A stretch of DNA of 49,811 nucleotides from a virus (IMGVR_UViG_2579779084_000010), one strand, 5' to 3'. Shown: positions 9,474 to 49,811, counted from the stretch's first letter. The notes: generated from the letters alone by a model not told the origin. Numbers and translations are program-made.

Positions 9474-10049
9474 CTACGGCAGTGCTGGCCATTCAATATC
9501 CTGTGCAGTTGACGTATCAACACGGTTCAGCAATACCCGATACTTTTTCCATGCTTCCAGCAACGAGATTTCTTCCTCCGTTGCAATTTCCAGATCTGCA
9601 GCATCCTGAAGCGGCGCAATATGCTCACTGGCTACCTGCATCAGGTTGTTTTTTGTTTCTTCCGCCTCCCGGATCCGGAACAGTTTTTCTGCTTCTGCAT
9701 CTTTCACCCAAGCTGTGCCGTTCCACTTCTGAAACTCCCCTTCCGGGGATAACCAGGTGACATGTTCCGGTAGCGGTCCGAGTTCAGAAATAAATAACGC
9801 GTCGCCGGAAGCCACGTCATAAACCGTTTTACCCCGATGATCTTCAACGAGATGCCACGATGCCTCATTACTGTTGAAAACGGCTACAAATCCTGCCGGA
9901 ATATCTGGCGGTGCAATATCGGTACTGTTTGCAGGCAGACCTGTATGAGGTGGAATATATGCGTCACCTTCACCAATAAATTCATTAGTTCCGGCCAGCA
10001 GATTATAAATTTTTATGGTCCGTGGTTGTTCACTCATTCTGAATGCCAT
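9474..10049 (-). CDS. tfa: Tail fibre assembly protein (Tfa)
   Basis: 191 aa directly downstream of the side tail fibre gene; the stf stop region overlaps the tfa start; sequence typical of lambdoid Tfa chaperones. Confidence 0.8.
9485..9655. repeat. Direct repeat copy B (tfa 3-prime region)
   Basis: Partner of 6700-6870; the two copies flank the methyltransferase / AT-rich island / invertase segment. Confidence 0.6.
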
Positions 10050-37008: not shown

Positions 37009-37541
37009 TTTTCCTCACATATGTCATATAGTAAAGGATTATATATACCGTTGTTTTGGACGCTCAAACAGCGAATCAGATCAAATAAAACGCACATTTG
37101 TTAACATTTACACAAAGTCTGCGTGGGATATTCTGAAAGAATATCCATAATGTGGAGAGAATCTATTGAAGTGCATGGTGCCGGGTGCCTCCCGGTGAAT
37201 TCAGTACCAGCACCTGAATCCGCGATTATCCCATATACCTACTCGCTGATTGCCCCTCCGCACAGGGGGATTCACCATGCCAGTTTCTTTTAACAAACTC
37301 CCCGCAAACCAGACAACAGTCAACCGCCTGAATTGTGAAGTATTTAAAAATTTCTCCCGCTAACTGATACCCGGCTAACAGTCCGGCGTTTTCTTTTTCA
37401 GCAACGGGAAAGCAATAACCACCACACCCGCCACCAGCACACCGTCAGCCAGCACTGACATTATCCGGCTGCTGCAATGCCATTCACAAAAACAGTAAGC
37501 AATAACTTTTTACCGTAACAGGTGATAATCCAGATATGTAT

Positions 37542-38182: not shown

Positions 38183-38258
38183 TGGTGGCCCTTGCTGGAT
38201 TTGAACCAGCGACCTGGCGATTATGAGTCGCTCGCTCTCACCACTGAGCTAAAGGGCC
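38183..38258 (-). tRNA. tRNA with CAU anticodon (Ile2/lysidine-type by similarity to E. coli ileX, or Met)
   Basis: GGCCCTTTAGCTCAGTGGTGAGAGCGAGCGACTCATAATCGCCAGGTCGCTGGTTCAAATCCAGCAAGGGCCACCA on the minus strand; anticodon loop CTCATAA. Confidence 0.8.
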
Positions 38259-41002: not shown

Positions 41003-41254
41003 TTATTCTTCTGCAAAAGCTGAAAAGCCTGCTTTTATTCCGATCTCTTTCAGTGCCTGTAATGAAGTGACAAACTCACCTTCGCGCAAGATAAATCCGT
41101 CCGTGACCCGAGCATCCACAAAATTAATTAACGCAGCCCCATTCTTTCGCAAACACAGAATGCGGTAATGACTAACAATGTTTCCATTTTCAACGCACAC
41201 AGCATAGAGGCCATCTTCACAAAAAATTTTACGCAGTTCTTCGATGTTCATCAT
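41003..41254 (-). CDS. Hypothetical small protein (Rem-like by size and position)
   Basis: 83 aa ORF located between hok and the DUF968 gene, as rem is in Qin; identity not verified. Confidence 0.35.
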   Translation of the reverse strand: MMNIEELRKIFCEDGLYAVCVENGNIVSHYRILCLRKNGAALINFVDARVTDGFILREGEFVTSLQALKEIGIKAGFSAFAEE

Positions 41255-41470: not shown

Positions 41471-41626
41471 TTACTCCTCAGGTTCGTAAGCTGTGAAGAC
41501 AGCGACCTCCGTCTGGCCGGTTCGGATTCGTACCTCGCAGAGGTCTTTCCTCGTTACCAGTGCCGTCACTATGACGGTTAAACAGATGACGATCAGGGCG
41601 ATTAACATCGCCTTTTGCTGCTTCAT
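41471..41626 (-). CDS. hok: Hok-family type I toxin (small membrane-depolarising peptide)
   Basis: 51 aa MKQQKAMLIALIVICLTVIVTALVTRKDLCEVRIRTGQTEVAVFTAYEPEE; strong SD AAGGAG; the ORF-track entry (70 aa) is an in-frame upstream extension. Confidence 0.8.
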   Translation of the reverse strand: MKQQKAMLIALIVICLTVIVTALVTRKDLCEVRIRTGQTEVAVFTAYEPEE

Positions 41627-42091
41627 AGCCTGCTTCTCCTTGCCTTTCGGCACGTAAGAGGCTAACCTACATGTGTCTAGCATGAAATTGGCCTCAGATT
41701 AATGTTAAGCGTCTTGCAGGACGCGTAATGTTAACTGGGGCTTTTCTCTATCTGCCGTTGGTGTTCATGCCCGAGGCAGATAGCCTCAAGCACCCGCAGC
41801 CATTCTACTTAACTACCGTTACCTCGCCAATGTGAAATCAGTCAGAAAGGCGATCCATAAGAACAATAGCAAGACAATAAATCGCCATTACAGCCGTAAT
41901 AGCCAGCGCACATTTGAGAACCAGCACCACAACCTCCTGTATTGGACGTACACCAGTCCTGATGAATATGAGGCTGTCTCGTCAGTGATTCAATACAACT
42001 ATTGGGTATAGTTTCTCTGATTTTTTCTGTGGAAATGGGGCTCAACCACTAGTCATTTAATACGCAAAGTCCGATACAAGCTAACCTTCTA

Positions 42092-46287: not shown

Positions 46288-46323
46288 CATTCTTTTCAAG
46301 TGATTAGTTGCGCTCACTCTTTT

Positions 46324-46342
46324 TGTTAGACTAACCTAACAA
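46324..46342. promoter_or_regulatory. Operator-like palindrome TTGTTAG-N5-CTAACAA upstream of ydfA
   Basis: Same half-site as the 45811-45830 palindrome; a third related dyad GTTAGATTATTCTAA sits at 46361-46377. Confidence 0.5.
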
Positions 46343-46455
46343 AAAACACTTGCCTATCATGTTAGATTATTCTAAATTAATTTCCATCAAGACACCGCAC
46401 GGTGTTCTCAGCAAACAGTTCCGCTACCCCGGCGTTAAGGGGAAATGAGGTCAGC

Positions 46456-46611
46456 ATGGATACTATCGATCTTGGCAACAGCGAATCTCTGGTATGTGGC
46501 GTGTTCCCCAACCAGGACGGTACGTTCACCGCGATGACGTATACCAAAAGCAAAACGTTTAAAACCGAAAATGGTGCCCGTCGCTGGCTGGAAAGAAACT
46601 CAGGTGAGTGA
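46456..46611 (+). CDS. ydfA: YdfA-like small protein
   Basis: 51 aa MDTIDLGNSESLVCGVFPNQDGTFTAMTYTKSKTFKTENGARRWLERNSGE with SD GGAAATGAGG; first gene of the dicB-type operon. Confidence 0.55.
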   Translation: MDTIDLGNSESLVCGVFPNQDGTFTAMTYTKSKTFKTENGARRWLERNSGE

Positions 46612-46612
46612 T

Positions 46613-47188
46613 ATGGATTTCGACACAATCATGGAAAAGGCTTACGAAGAATACTTCGAAGGTCTTGCCGAAGGCGAAGAAGCTCTCAGCTTCAGTGAGT
46701 TTAAACAGGCACTCAGAATAAGAATGTGCTCTCACAATGACGCTGAGCACAAATATGAGAAGCAAAATCAGACCGCAGAAAATTTTGTTCTGGAACCCGG
46801 AGAAACGCTTTTCAAAATTCCCGTTACGTGCCCCATTTGCGGTTTTACATCAGAAGAACTTGACGAACCCTGTAACAATCAGGAAACAACCAAGTATGTC
46901 GAAGATGATACCGAGTGCGCACGAAGAACGATTATATCCACGAGTCCAAACTCCAGGACCAATAAATCTCACTTTGAGAGGGTGATTAATCCACTCCCCC
47001 AAACCAATAAAAAAGATGCCGGAGGACAAAAAACCCAATGGAACAACGGGATATCTGTCAAAAAAAGACGTTCCATTAAAGACAAACAACGCAGCGCCAA
47101 CAACTGTAAGCGCTTTATACCAGTAATCAATTTTCATGTTCTTAAGCGGATTTATTGGTGGTTGCGACATTGCTTAATGAATCCTTAA
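46613..47188 (+). CDS. YdfB/YdfC-like protein, apparently fused, with CPICG...C zinc-ribbon-like motif
   Basis: 192 aa from MDFDTIMEKAYEEYFEGLAEGEE; basic, low-complexity C-terminal tail may reflect a frame change rather than real protein. Confidence 0.4.
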   Translation: MDFDTIMEKAYEEYFEGLAEGEEALSFSEFKQALRIRMCSHNDAEHKYEKQNQTAENFVLEPGETLFKIPVTCPICGFTSEELDEPCNNQETTKYVEDDTECARRTIISTSPNSRTNKSHFERVINPLPQTNKKDAGGQKTQWNNGISVKKRRSIKDKQRSANNCKRFIPVINFHVLKRIYWWLRHCLMNP

Positions 47189-47439
47189 AACTGTGGTGAT
47201 TTTAAGGATACCACCTCGCCTGACGTGGTTAAAAGCAGGCACACAACACGAAAGCGCACGGCGAAGTTCGTCTCACTGTACGGTGTCGGTAAATTTAATT
47301 CGACCGTGCGCTTCCGGTTGTGGCACTCCGCGAAATGGCGCGGCGGTAAGTATGGCGGGGGTATTCCTTCCCCGTTGAGGACACCGGGTTGTCAGGTTGA
47401 CCATACGCCTGAGTGACAACTCCGCTACAACAACCCATG

Positions 47440-47495
47440 TTGATTACCTTTTGGCGGGTATTCGTTTTGTTTTTCCCGTGATACCCGCCCCTTTT
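47440..47495 (+). ncRNA. dicF: DicF-like small RNA (3-prime terminator hairpin and downstream region resemble K-12 dicF)
   Basis: GGCGGGTAT...ATACCCGCC hairpin followed by CCTTTTAAAGTGAATTTTGTGATGCGGTGAATGCGGCTCAGCGCACGCGGAAC, closely resembling my recollection of the dicF 3-prime region; 5-prime part diverged; boundaries approximate. Confidence 0.4.
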
Positions 47496-47672
47496 AAAGT
47501 GAATTTTGTGATGCGGTGAATGCGGCTCAGCGCACGCGGAACAGTTAAAACAAGCGGTCTTTTACTTGCGTAACAGACATCAACTAACAATCCGGCGTTA
47601 ATGGTTTACTGGTTAACGTCACCTGGAGGCACCAGGCGCCGCATCACAAAATTCATTGTTGAGGACGCGATA

Positions 47673-47861
47673 ATGGAAACGTTATTACCAAACGTTAATA
47701 CGTCTGAAGGTTGTTTTGAAATTGGTGTCACTATCAGTAACCCAGTATTTACTGAAGATGCCATTAACAAGAGAAAACAAGAACGGGAGCTATTAAATAA
47801 AATATGCATTGTTTCAATGCTGGCCCGTTTACGCCTGATGCAAAAAGGATGCTGGCAATGA
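47673..47861 (+). CDS. dicB: Cell division inhibitor DicB
   Basis: 62 aa METLLPNVNTSEGCFEIGVTISNPVFTEDAINKRKQERELLNKICIVSMLARLRLMQKGCWQ; SD GAGGA upstream; the ORF-track start at 47601 is an upstream extension. Confidence 0.75.
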   Translation: METLLPNVNTSEGCFEIGVTISNPVFTEDAINKRKQERELLNKICIVSMLARLRLMQKGCWQ

Positions 47862-48061
47862 ATACTACATTTGCACTTGTTCTGACGGTTTTTCTTGTTT
47901 CCGGTGAACCGGTTGACATGGTTACTGGCGTATACGGCTCAATGAAAGAATGCATGGTTGCCGCAGCGGAACAGAAAATTCCCGGTAACTGTTATCCGGT
48001 CGATAAAGTTATTCACATGGATAATAACGAAATCCCGGCAGGACTTAAAACAGCACCGTAA
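47858..48061 (+). CDS. ydfD: YdfD-like small membrane (lysis-associated) protein
   Basis: 67 aa MNTTFALVLTVFLVSGEPVDMVTGVYGSMKECMVAAAEQKIPGNCYPVDKVIHMDNNEIPAGLKTAP; start overlaps the dicB stop (ATGA). Confidence 0.6.
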   Translation: MNTTFALVLTVFLVSGEPVDMVTGVYGSMKECMVAAAEQKIPGNCYPVDKVIHMDNNEIPAGLKTAP

Positions 48062-48141: not shown

Positions 48142-49811
48142 ATGAGTAAAGTCTTTATTTGCGCCGCCATTCCGGACGAACAGGCAATAAAGGAAGAAGG
48201 TGCAGTCGCTGTAGCCACTGCCATTGAAGCTGGCGACGAACGCCGCGCCCGTGCCAAATTTACCTGGCAATTCCTGGAGCAATATCCGGCTGCTCAGGAC
48301 TGCGCTTATAAATTTCTTGTTTGCGAGGATAAACCCGGTATACCCCGCCCTGCCCTCGATTCCTGGGATGCTGAATATATGCAGGAAAACCGCTGGGATG
48401 AGGAGTCAGCTTCCTTTGTCCCGGTTGAGACTGAATCAGATCCGATGAACGTCACTTTTGACAAGCTGGCCCCTGAAGTGCAGAACGCTGTCATGGTTAA
48501 GTTCGACACATGTGAAAACATCACCGTTGATATGGTGATTAGTGCACAGGAACTGTTGCAGGAAGACATGGCAACATTCGACGGACATATCGTTGAAGCG
48601 TTGATGAAAATGCCAGAAGTTAACGCCATGTATCCAGAACTTAAGTTGCATGCCATCGGGTGGGTTAAGCATAAATGTAAGCCTGGAGCTAAATGGCCCG
48701 AAATTCAGGCAGAGATGCGCATCTGGAAAAAACGTCGCGAAGGTGAACGCAAGGAAACCGGAAAATACACGTCTGCTGTTGATCTCGCCCGCGCCAGAGT
48801 CAACCGACAGCACACTGAAAACTCAGCAGAAAATATCCCCCCTGTCACTGCAGTCATTCGTCGCGAATATAAGCAGACATGGAAAACACTGGATGATGAA
48901 CTGGCCTACGCTCTGTGGCCTGGTGACATTGATGCCGGAAACATTGACGGCAGCATCCATCGCTGGGCAAAAAATGAAGTTATCAACAACGACCGCGAAG
49001 ACTGGAAGCGTATCTCAGCATCAATGCGCAAACAGCCTGATGCCCTTCGCTACGACCGCCAGACTATTTTTGGCCTTGTCCGTGAGCGTCCGATCGACAT
49101 TCACAAAGACCCTGTGGCACTGAACAAATACATTACTGAATACCTGACTACAAAGGGCGTGTTTGAAGATGAAGGAACAAATCAGATCGCAACTGATACT
49201 CTCTCGTCGCCAGTACCAGAAACTGATGCAGTGGAAACGGCAATTCCGGACAACGAAAAAACCGAATGCAAAGTGGAAGTCGAACCATCTGTAGAGCGTG
49301 AGGGGCCGTTCTACTTCCTCTTCACCGACAAGGATGGTGAAAAATACGGTCGCGCAAACAAACTTTCTGGTCTGGATAAGGCACTGGCTGCCGGGGCTAC
49401 TGAAATCACGAAAGAAGAATATTTCGTCCGCAAAAACAGTACATACTCAGGTTCACAACAAAATACTGGTGCATCTGACACGACCGCACAACCAGGGCCG
49501 GTAAAAGTTACCGCTGACGAAGTAAACAACATTATGCAGGCAGCCAATATCAGCCAGCCTGACGCCGATGAACTGCTTGCAGTATCACGTGGTGAATTTG
49601 TTGCAGGAATTAGCGATCCGAATGATCCGAAATGGGTGAAGGGGATGGAAACCCGCGATTCTGTGAACCAGAACCAGCAAGAAACGGAACAGAACGGCCA
49701 GAAAGCGGAACAAAACAGCCCAAATGCGTTACAAAATGAGCCAGAAACGAAACAACCTGAACCAGTAGTGCAACAGGAACCGGAAAAGATCTGCACCGCC
49801 TGCGGTCAGAC
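48142..49811 (+). CDS. RecE-like (exonuclease VIII family) protein, 5-prime partial view: ORF runs off the right edge
   Basis: Open frame of at least 556 codons, not in the ORF track because it has no stop in the window; segment DELLAVSRGEFVAGISDPNDPKWVKGMETRD resembles a RecE internal segment; N-terminus differs from K-12 RecE. Confidence 0.55.
   Translation, partial: MSKVFICAAIPDEQAIKEEGAVAVATAIEAGDERRARAKFTWQFLEQYPAAQDCAYKFLVCEDKPGIPRPALDSWDAEYMQENRWDEESASFVPVETESDPMNVTFDKLAPEVQNAVMVKFDTCENITVDMVISAQELLQEDMATFDGHIVEALMKMPEVNAMYPELKLHAIGWVKHKCKPGAKWPEIQAEMRIWKKRREGERKETGKYTSAVDLARARVNRQHTENSAENIPPVTAVIRREYKQTWKTLDDELAYALWPGDIDAGNIDGSIHRWAKNEVINNDREDWKRISASMRKQPDALRYDRQTIFGLVRERPIDIHKDPVALNKYITEYLTTKGVFEDEGTNQIATDTLSSPVPETDAVETAIPDNEKTECKVEVEPSVEREGPFYFLFTDKDGEKYGRANKLSGLDKALAAGATEITKEEYFVRKNSTYSGSQQNTGASDTTAQPGPVKVTADEVNNIMQAANISQPDADELLAVSRGEFVAGISDPNDPKWVKGMETRDSVNQNQQETEQNGQKAEQNSPNALQNEPETKQPEPVVQQEPEKICTACGQ

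Follow-up and report, generated by a model that had tools for sequence, protein, structure and literature searches.

Is the RNA element that precedes dicB and ydfD in this prophage DicF itself, a remnant of DicF, or a different RNA in the same position? A first-pass annotation of this DNA had proposed a DicF-like RNA, diverged from K-12 DicF in its 5' half and followed by dicB and ydfD with overlapping start and stop codons. We have followed up this proposal by computational analysis of the whole stretch of 49,811 nt (referred to as the window). Positions 47400-48061 form part of the early-left operon of a lambdoid prophage resembling Qin, whose late genes are encoded on the minus strand, and the host genes potA/pepT are located at the left end of the window.

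The dicB operon and its surroundings

The features discussed in this report are listed in Table 1. The position under study, which we call the slot, corresponds to that of K-12 DicF, between the ydfA-B(-C) genes and dicB-ydfD and under a DicA-type repressor; the order ydfA-C genes, slot, dicB, with a dicA/dicC immunity region upstream, is that of the dicB operon. The regulatory circuit expected around this operon was found to be present, and comprises a DicA-like repressor, a DicC/Cro-like protein, a promoter region, ydfA and, elsewhere in the prophage, a rem homologue. The dicC/Cro-like gene is divergent from the dicA-like gene, the same arrangement as in K-12 Qin. The interval between the dicA-like gene and ydfA is 78.8% identical to the K-12 dicA-ydfA interval, carries allele-specific TTAG..CTAA operator-like repeats, and would act as promoter, as inferred from this homology. 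In K-12 Qin, Rem is an antirepressor of DicA and turns the dicBF operon on (PMC10448788).

Table 1. Positions of features in the window, in order along the plus strand
Feature	Position	Strand	Basis or remark
rem homologue	41003..41254	-	95% identity to annotated Rem of E. coli 55989
dicC-like Cro-type regulator, 76 aa	45575..45802	-	Pfam P22_Cro, 45.8 bits
dicA-like repressor, 135 aa	45880..46287	+	Pfam HTH_3, 54 bits; position matches K-12 dicA
Putative promoter/operator region	46288..46455	+	homologous to K-12 dicA-ydfA interval, site of dicBp
ydfA (DUF1391), 51 aa, first gene of operon	46456..46611	+	Pfam DUF1391, 96 bits
Predicted membrane protein, 106 aa	46850..47170	-	ORF list; occupies K-12 ydfC position
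Conserved untranslated leader	47193..47433	+	alignment; counterpart of K-12 region with RNase III site, 190-nt DicF precursor
5' module II, CCCAUGUUGAUUACCUUUU	47434..47452	+	stands in place of K-12 ..AUCAAUUUUCUGGUGACGUUU
Hairpin B1: 10-bp stem 47453-47462 / 47480-47489, 17-nt loop 47463-47479	47453..47489	+	individual folds
Terminator tail, CC + U4 tract	47490..47495	+	sequence, alignment; one U fewer than K-12
Structured dicB leader	47496..47672	+	fold -70 kcal/mol, z -5.2
dicB, 62 aa	47673..47861	+	Pfam DicB (PF05358), 136.2 bits over 1-62 of 62
ydfD-like DUF1482 gene, 67 aa	47858..48061	+	Pfam DUF1482 (PF07358), 81.1 bits
Exonuclease (RecE-like) gene	48142..49811	+	frame open to window end, cut there

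That dicB and ydfD follow the slot with overlapping start and stop codons was borne out. The dicB product is identical to K-12 DicB at 59 of 62 residues (95%), with a full-length Pfam match above the curated cut-off; the ydfD-like product is 76% identical to K-12 YdfD, its match likewise exceeding the curated cut-off; and the ATGA at 47858-47861 joins the dicB stop to the ydfD start. On sequence grounds, this protein-coding module looks intact.

Several neighbouring features may be recorded here. ydfB is truncated at about 46715, upstream of the 106-aa ORF, and the closest genomes annotate ydfB as partial. The ORF itself, which is antisense to the dicB operon, resembles an inserted accessory gene of unknown function; a Pfam search with its product gave no match, and we found 60 homologues of about 102 aa, including proteins from Yersinia, Herminiimonas and Reinekea at 40-50% identity. 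Downstream of ydfD, related genomes annotate "exonuclease" at the position of the gene that runs off the window. In the nin region, the rem homologue adjoins a hokD/sok toxin-antitoxin locus at 41471-41795 (minus strand; Rfam sok, 115 bits). A tRNA gene with a CAT anticodon at 38183-38258 (minus strand), which ARAGORN calls Met and whose syntenic counterpart in E. coli 55989 is annotated by RefSeq as tRNA-Ile of the lysidine-modified type, adjoins a tRNA-Arg(TCT) gene. Finally, a full-length Rfam match to IS009 (221 bits) is located at 9508-9706 (minus strand), in the left half of the window and among or near the prophage tail genes.

Sequence and fold of the element in the slot

We searched the window with the Rfam DicF model, RF00039. 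The whole window gave no match at the gathering score (48 bits), and a permissive scan of 47150-47700 (551 nt) gave none at E<=10; the positive controls, the loci of K-12 and of strain ST2350, each scored 76.7 bits. The Rfam families found in the window were five: IS009, sok, STnc100 and two tRNAs. This search had been set beforehand as a check able to refute the proposal, and by its outcome the element fails as a member of the DicF family; it is certain that it lies outside that family as now modelled. Alignment to the K-12 and ST2350 loci explains the missing match, in that the core of the element has been replaced. Missing RefSeq annotation of the element is uninformative, because two PGAP records that we examined leave canonical dicF unannotated as well.

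The extent of this replacement is evident from the alignment to K-12. The core of ~57 nt (47439-47495) is only 64% identical to the K-12 DicF stretch (41 of 64 aligned positions, with four indels), as against 95.8% for the upstream flank (47301-47420) and 84% for the downstream flank (47496-47675). Positions 47439-47452 read GTTGATTACCTTTT, where the K-12 counterpart is UUUCUGGUGACGUUU, so that the 5' part does differ from K-12 as had been claimed; with it, the 5' single-stranded seed of DicF for pairing with xylR, UUUCUGGUGACGUUU, is missing and GUUGAUUACCUUUU is found instead. The divergence is, however, not limited to the 5' half, since the loop and the 3' arm have also been replaced. K-12 DicF and the window core have in common a terminal GC-rich hairpin with basal GGCGG/CCGCC pairs, a loop motif GUUUU..CC(C)GUGA and a U tract, and differ in sequence in the 5' single-stranded part, the upper stem and the entire 3' arm; the 17-nt loop of the window allele is unstructured, and the inner CAGU/ACUG helix of K-12 DicF is absent from it. 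The supposed close resemblance of hairpin and downstream sequence to K-12 therefore applies to the downstream sequence, and to the hairpin only in its basal pairs, loop motif and U tract. Similarly, the view that a DicF-like RNA precedes dicB and ydfD is correct as regards an RNA element in the dicF position, but the core of this element is not that of K-12 DicF with a changed 5' half only.

The replaced core is a well-formed structure. Hairpin B1, whose stem arms are GGCGGGUAUU/GAUACCCGCC, has a U/C-rich loop that includes GUUUUUCCCG at 47469-47478 and is followed by CCUUUU, which is the order of terminal GC-rich hairpin and U tract looked for in a DicF. The hairpin alone folds at -16.0 kcal/mol, compared with -15.1 kcal/mol for the canonical hairpin, and the 68-nt stretch 47430-47497 has an MFE of -18.3 kcal/mol (z -3.9), which was equalled in none of 200 shuffles. 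A generic terminator scan of the window did not call the B1 hairpin, because its loop is longer than 8 nt. That the element is a hairpin of the terminator type is certain. By analogy, a putative RNase E site, GA/UUAC, is located at 47443/47444.

The processing leader upstream of the slot and the dicB leader downstream of it are nearly identical in K-12 and the window, and alignment and folds indicate that the flanking processing structures are conserved between the two. Processing in the upstream leader, at the RNase III site of the 190-nt DicF precursor, is known for K-12 only (PMC10448788). In the dicB leader, 47498-47518 pairs with 47637-47657 in a perfect duplex of 21 bp, in which a compensatory change is seen on comparison with K-12. 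The duplex closes a multibranch domain, which extends to just short of the dicB Shine-Dalgarno sequence, GAGGA (47661-47665). This duplex fits the RNase III processing on the 3' side of DicF that has been published for K-12 (PMC5069750). Most of the differences from K-12 in the downstream leader are contained in a variable island, 47532-47571. This island, which is inside the domain closed by the duplex, is wholly different in the window, in K-12 and in the kil-linked copies described below.

The dicB leader also resembles STnc100 (RF02076). Its segment 47502-47650 scored 29.9 bits (E 1e-4) over model positions 21-154, below the gathering score of 47, and shares with STnc100 the outer stem and the CACCNGGAGGCACCNGGC hairpin. 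The late operon of this prophage contains a full STnc100 copy (114 bits) at 37119-37309 (minus strand), which follows Q and two tRNA genes, and the sequence GGUGAAU...UCACCNGGAGGCACCNGGC is common to this copy and to the dicB leader. From these shared sequences, the early-left dicB leader and the late-operon STnc100 leader appear to be related. Prophage sRNA families have been described whose structure is retained despite divergence of their sequences and seeds (Zhu, Shabalina & Storz 2026 bioRxiv); that preprint makes no mention of DicF, dicB or kil. The likeness to STnc100/PasD concerns the dicB leader, and not the hairpin of the DicF slot. We considered, and rejected, the idea that the DicF-slot element is itself a Pas sRNA, since Pas sRNAs are located in the late region beside Q and the lysis genes.

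An allele series at the dicF slot

It has reportedly been noted by Faubladier and Bouche (1994) that dicF-like sequences occur in Rac and in other bacteria. We examined the slot in a sample of ~280 loci, drawn from one genome per species together with IMG/VR viral contigs, and located by two conserved anchors with a free gap between them plus patterns from the new core. The slot cores sort into discrete modules, namely several 5' modules and hairpin types A-G, which make up at least seven hairpin classes. Among the 5' modules, I (UUUCUGGUGACGUUU) is canonical and II (CCCAUGUUGAUUACCUUUU) is that of the window and is shared with class C alleles; several others are rarer. Hairpin A is canonical; B is GGCGGGUAU..AUACCCGCC, with loop subtypes B1 (that of the window), B1', B2 and B3; C is GGCGGCAUCAG..CUGAUGUCCGCC; D is GGUGGCA..UGCCACC with the canonical loop; F is a minimal hairpin with a 6-bp stem and an 8-nt loop; and E and G are further types. 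The combinations observed were II+B, II+C, I+A, I+G, I+F and other 5' modules with B. In these terms, segment 47434-47495 of the window is a non-canonical allele of the prophage's dicF element, combining module II with hairpin B1. Rfam recognises the canonical class and D only, D (58.9 bits) being the sole non-canonical allele so recognised.

The alleles share an architecture. All fold to a terminal hairpin of -10 to -20 kcal/mol, and the other slot alleles (C, D, E, F, G, Shigella and kil-linked) have the same flanks and the same hairpin-plus-U-tract arrangement as the window allele, with stem extension and loop specific to each class. Stem pairs were tabulated from individual folds, as a MAFFT alignment left the hairpins out of register. 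The stems change by compensatory pairs: at rank 3, C-G or U-A is found; at rank 6, U-G, G-C, C-G or A-U; and at each of ranks 7-10, three or four pair types. All B subtypes have a loop of 17-22 nt, while the 8-nt loop of allele F suffices for a hairpin at the slot.

In most loci the slot is upstream of dicB, but in Rac-SA53, Stx phage 75/02 and phage pPE4 it is upstream of kil, the pPE4 copy being a II+B allele. The latter (phage vB_Apl-pPE4, ~560-830) is preceded by a duplicated piece consisting of the hairpin 3' arm and the start of the leader; the phage sequence is E. coli-like, though the recorded host is Actinobacillus. In three loci (L054, L077 and L007), the slot is followed by matches to isrK and C4 antisense RNA and by no dicB, and a DicF-type slot is thus also found beside an immunity RNA region of the P1/P7 type. 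One of these copies, L007 from Shigella, has a disrupted stem. Two other loci (L247 and L264) carry decayed copies, in which the 5' arm of hairpin C has been deleted and the flanks are intact; these may serve as a model of what a true remnant looks like.

As to frequency, the subset of loci found by the anchors only (n=125), which is unbiased with respect to the core, contained 110 canonical and 5 II+B alleles. Module II cores, B and C taken together, were present in 205 of 5,426 complete E. coli genomes. Twenty-four complete E. coli genomes are identical to the window over 76 nt; human O166:H15 isolates and isolates named as ETEC are among the examples listed, and the identical allele is carried, for instance, by FDAARGOS_1077 (NZ_CP068155.1, core at 311058-311133) and by the O166:H15 JNE strains; a further ~126 are 90-99% identical (class B), and the remainder of the 205 are below 90%. 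The core was also found in about 60 IMG/VR prophage contigs. The first-pass annotation had allowed that the region might be only a terminator remnant. Such a reading does not hold in the sense of decay, since an intact hairpin recurs, and is conserved within its class, in many genomes. It is certain that the element is homologous to dicF in position and flanks, that its core has been replaced, and that it is recurrent and structurally intact.

Per-site diversity gives a measure of constraint on the core. When all alleles are taken together, no local segment diverges more than the core (0.14-0.31, compared with 0.02-0.07 for the flanks next to it). In class A taken alone, the core ranks with the best conserved segments (0.01-0.02), and the canonical loop is as conserved as its flanks. 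Within class B, the 5' module and stem are nearly invariant, and local variability is highest in the loop (0.12 versus 0.01-0.03 for its neighbours), mainly through changes in the length of U runs; these class B loci were partly picked by core-internal patterns, so that the 5' module and stem, but not the loop, appear less diverse than they would otherwise. The variation of the class B loop looks like relaxed constraint. The picture that these sequence comparisons suggest is one of discrete and maintained hairpin classes, with weaker evidence for selection on the sequence of the B loop itself.

Target pairing and the role of the element

DicF of K-12 pairs with xylR through its 5' end, and with ftsZ and pykA through its loop and 3' arm (PMC5069750); it also represses manX (PMC10448788). 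We used a pairing model that combines windowed hybridisation with opening energy (accessibility). Plain duplex energies without accessibility were dropped, as they gave long, unrealistic duplexes and zero discrimination. With canonical DicF, the model regained the published xylR site (+9..+20 with DicF nt 6-15, -13.4 kcal/mol), the pykA RBS site (-11.7 kcal/mol) and manX +34..+53 (-12.5 kcal/mol). The best pairings of the window allele with these three mRNAs were -3 to -6.3 kcal/mol at unrelated positions (-3 to -5 kcal/mol on xylR; -3.4 to -6.3 kcal/mol, off the published sites, on pykA and manX). The validated xylR, pykA and manX sites are thus predicted to be lost to the window allele. An altered target set, as had been suggested for this RNA, is a reasonable expectation, should the RNA act in trans, in view of the absent 5' xylR-pairing seed.

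For ftsZ, the results are less clear-cut. GUUUUUCCCG in the B1 loop can pair with CGG(A)GAGAAAC at -12..-2 of ftsZ (10 bp and one bulge, -7.7 kcal/mol), across the Shine-Dalgarno sequence and in a manner resembling the first pairing block of canonical DicF. However, 6% of random segments of 140 nt equalled this match, as did 32% of shuffles of the B1 loop that preserve its composition; for the canonical loop, the proportion of such shuffles was 3.9%. Subtypes B2 and B3 paired worse with ftsZ (-3.5 kcal/mol). The second ftsZ pairing block, upstream of the RBS, which has been shown by compensatory mutation to matter in K-12, is largely lost in the window allele. Together, these results indicate that the ftsZ match is that of a pyrimidine-rich, anti-Shine-Dalgarno-like loop without demonstrable specificity. 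Energies alone cannot decide on ftsZ, because the model does not separate even the validated DicF-ftsZ pair from random segments, 55% of which are as good. Complementarity to the B1 loop and 5' tail was also sought within the window, where only G-U-rich matches in coding regions, at chance level, were found.

These observations, and homology with K-12, suggest how the element may work. Transcription from a DicA-repressed promoter upstream of ydfA would pass through the slot; some transcripts would stop at the hairpin and others would read through into dicB-ydfD, and we propose that, through this partial stop, the hairpin sets the amount of DicB and YdfD. Processing on the 5' side would then free an RNA of ~50 nt (approximately 47444-47495), in which a short 5' tail, rich in U, precedes the hairpin with its pyrimidine-rich loop of 17 nt. 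By analogy, then, the element is likely to be a partial terminator before dicB-ydfD that releases an RNA of this size. The pairing models predict that the freed RNA would be unable to perform most tasks of K-12 DicF, as the xylR seed and the 3'-arm sequences for pykA and manX are gone and a generic anti-Shine-Dalgarno match is all that would remain for ftsZ. If the RNA acts in trans, it would do so through the UUUUUCCC loop and UACCUUUU tail, on targets unlike those of DicF.

We regard it as an even chance that the element is both a terminator and an sRNA with an altered target set. Divergence of the core against identity of the flanks, stability of the hairpin relative to shuffles, recurrence, discrete classes with compensatory stem changes, modules that recombine, near invariance of 5' module and stem within class B, a loop of 17-22 nt in all B subtypes, and the outcome of the pairing model for xylR, pykA and manX are the observations that speak for this explanation; the variability of the class B loop, the weak ftsZ match, which is poorer still in B2 and B3, and the U tract of just four residues speak against it. 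A substantial possibility, to which we give somewhat less than even weight, is that the element works in cis only, as a partial intrinsic terminator or a 3'-end-forming or processing signal of the early-left operon that gates dicB-ydfD (or kil in other phages), with the RNA as a by-product whose loop and 5' tail have no sequence-specific function. A GC-rich stem and a U tract are all that is kept over the alleles, before dicB and kil alike, while loops and 5' tails are swapped freely; allele F has a minimal stem of 6 bp and an 8-nt loop; the class B loop is conserved less than any other local segment, its variation being by slippage in U runs; and ftsZ complementarity is no better than that of composition-matched shuffles. 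On the other hand, an unstructured loop of 17-22 nt is present in every B subtype although such a loop weakens a terminator, the allele classes are discrete with low diversity of the 5' module within a class, and the U-rich stretch just before the hairpin is kept together with the 3' U tail. These two U-rich elements are features of Hfq-binding sRNAs. Moreover, the canonical allele of this very slot is a proven trans-acting sRNA (PMC5069750). The cis-only reading and that of a terminator plus sRNA are not exclusive, canonical DicF being both.

A decaying, non-functional dicF remnant in a cryptic prophage would agree with the lack of recognition by Rfam and with the existence of truly decayed copies of the slot, such as those with a deleted 5' arm or, in Shigella, a disrupted stem. 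We consider this very improbable for the window allele, in which an intact hairpin matches the canonical one in stability (-16.0 vs -15.1 kcal/mol), the stem changes are compensatory pairs rather than mismatches, and dicB and ydfD are intact, as are the leader structures and the regulators; furthermore, the same 76 nt are found in 24 complete genomes, with close variants in some 130 more. Canonical DicF masked by a sequencing or assembly error is refuted by recurrence, as the identical sequence is present in independent complete genomes and in viral contigs, and we attach practically no weight to it. A more far-reaching form of the terminator-plus-sRNA explanation is doubtful, but merits statement. 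It holds that the dicF position of lambdoid prophages is a modular sRNA cassette, in which a conserved scaffold and leader flank a core of ~55 nt whose seed and loop modules are exchanged, and that allele II-B1, which is carried by a few percent of E. coli, with enrichment among human isolates of the ETEC-like type, would be a functional Hfq-dependent riboregulator that has lost xylR, pykA and manX, has a weakened or lost ftsZ interaction, and has gained new targets through the UUUUUCCC loop and UACCUUUU tail.

DicF is handled as one sequence in the searchable literature, and the main comparative survey of it took copies that were >99% identical (PMC5069750). We did not find an allele series at the dicF slot described in that literature, and text searches with allele sequences and with "DicF-like" returned nothing relevant. 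One of the oldest known bacterial sRNAs, usually taken as a single sequence, thus occupies a slot with at least seven hairpin classes. The natural alleles act like seed-swap mutants, in that D keeps the loop without the 5' seed, F and G keep the seed without the loop, and B and C keep neither. With such a series, it could be possible to tell apart what DicF does to division, to metabolism and in toxicity, and to show whether strains considered to lack dicF bear a different regulator before the same dicB gene. If, instead, the element acts in cis only, the differing terminator strengths of the alleles would set different levels of DicB and Kil.
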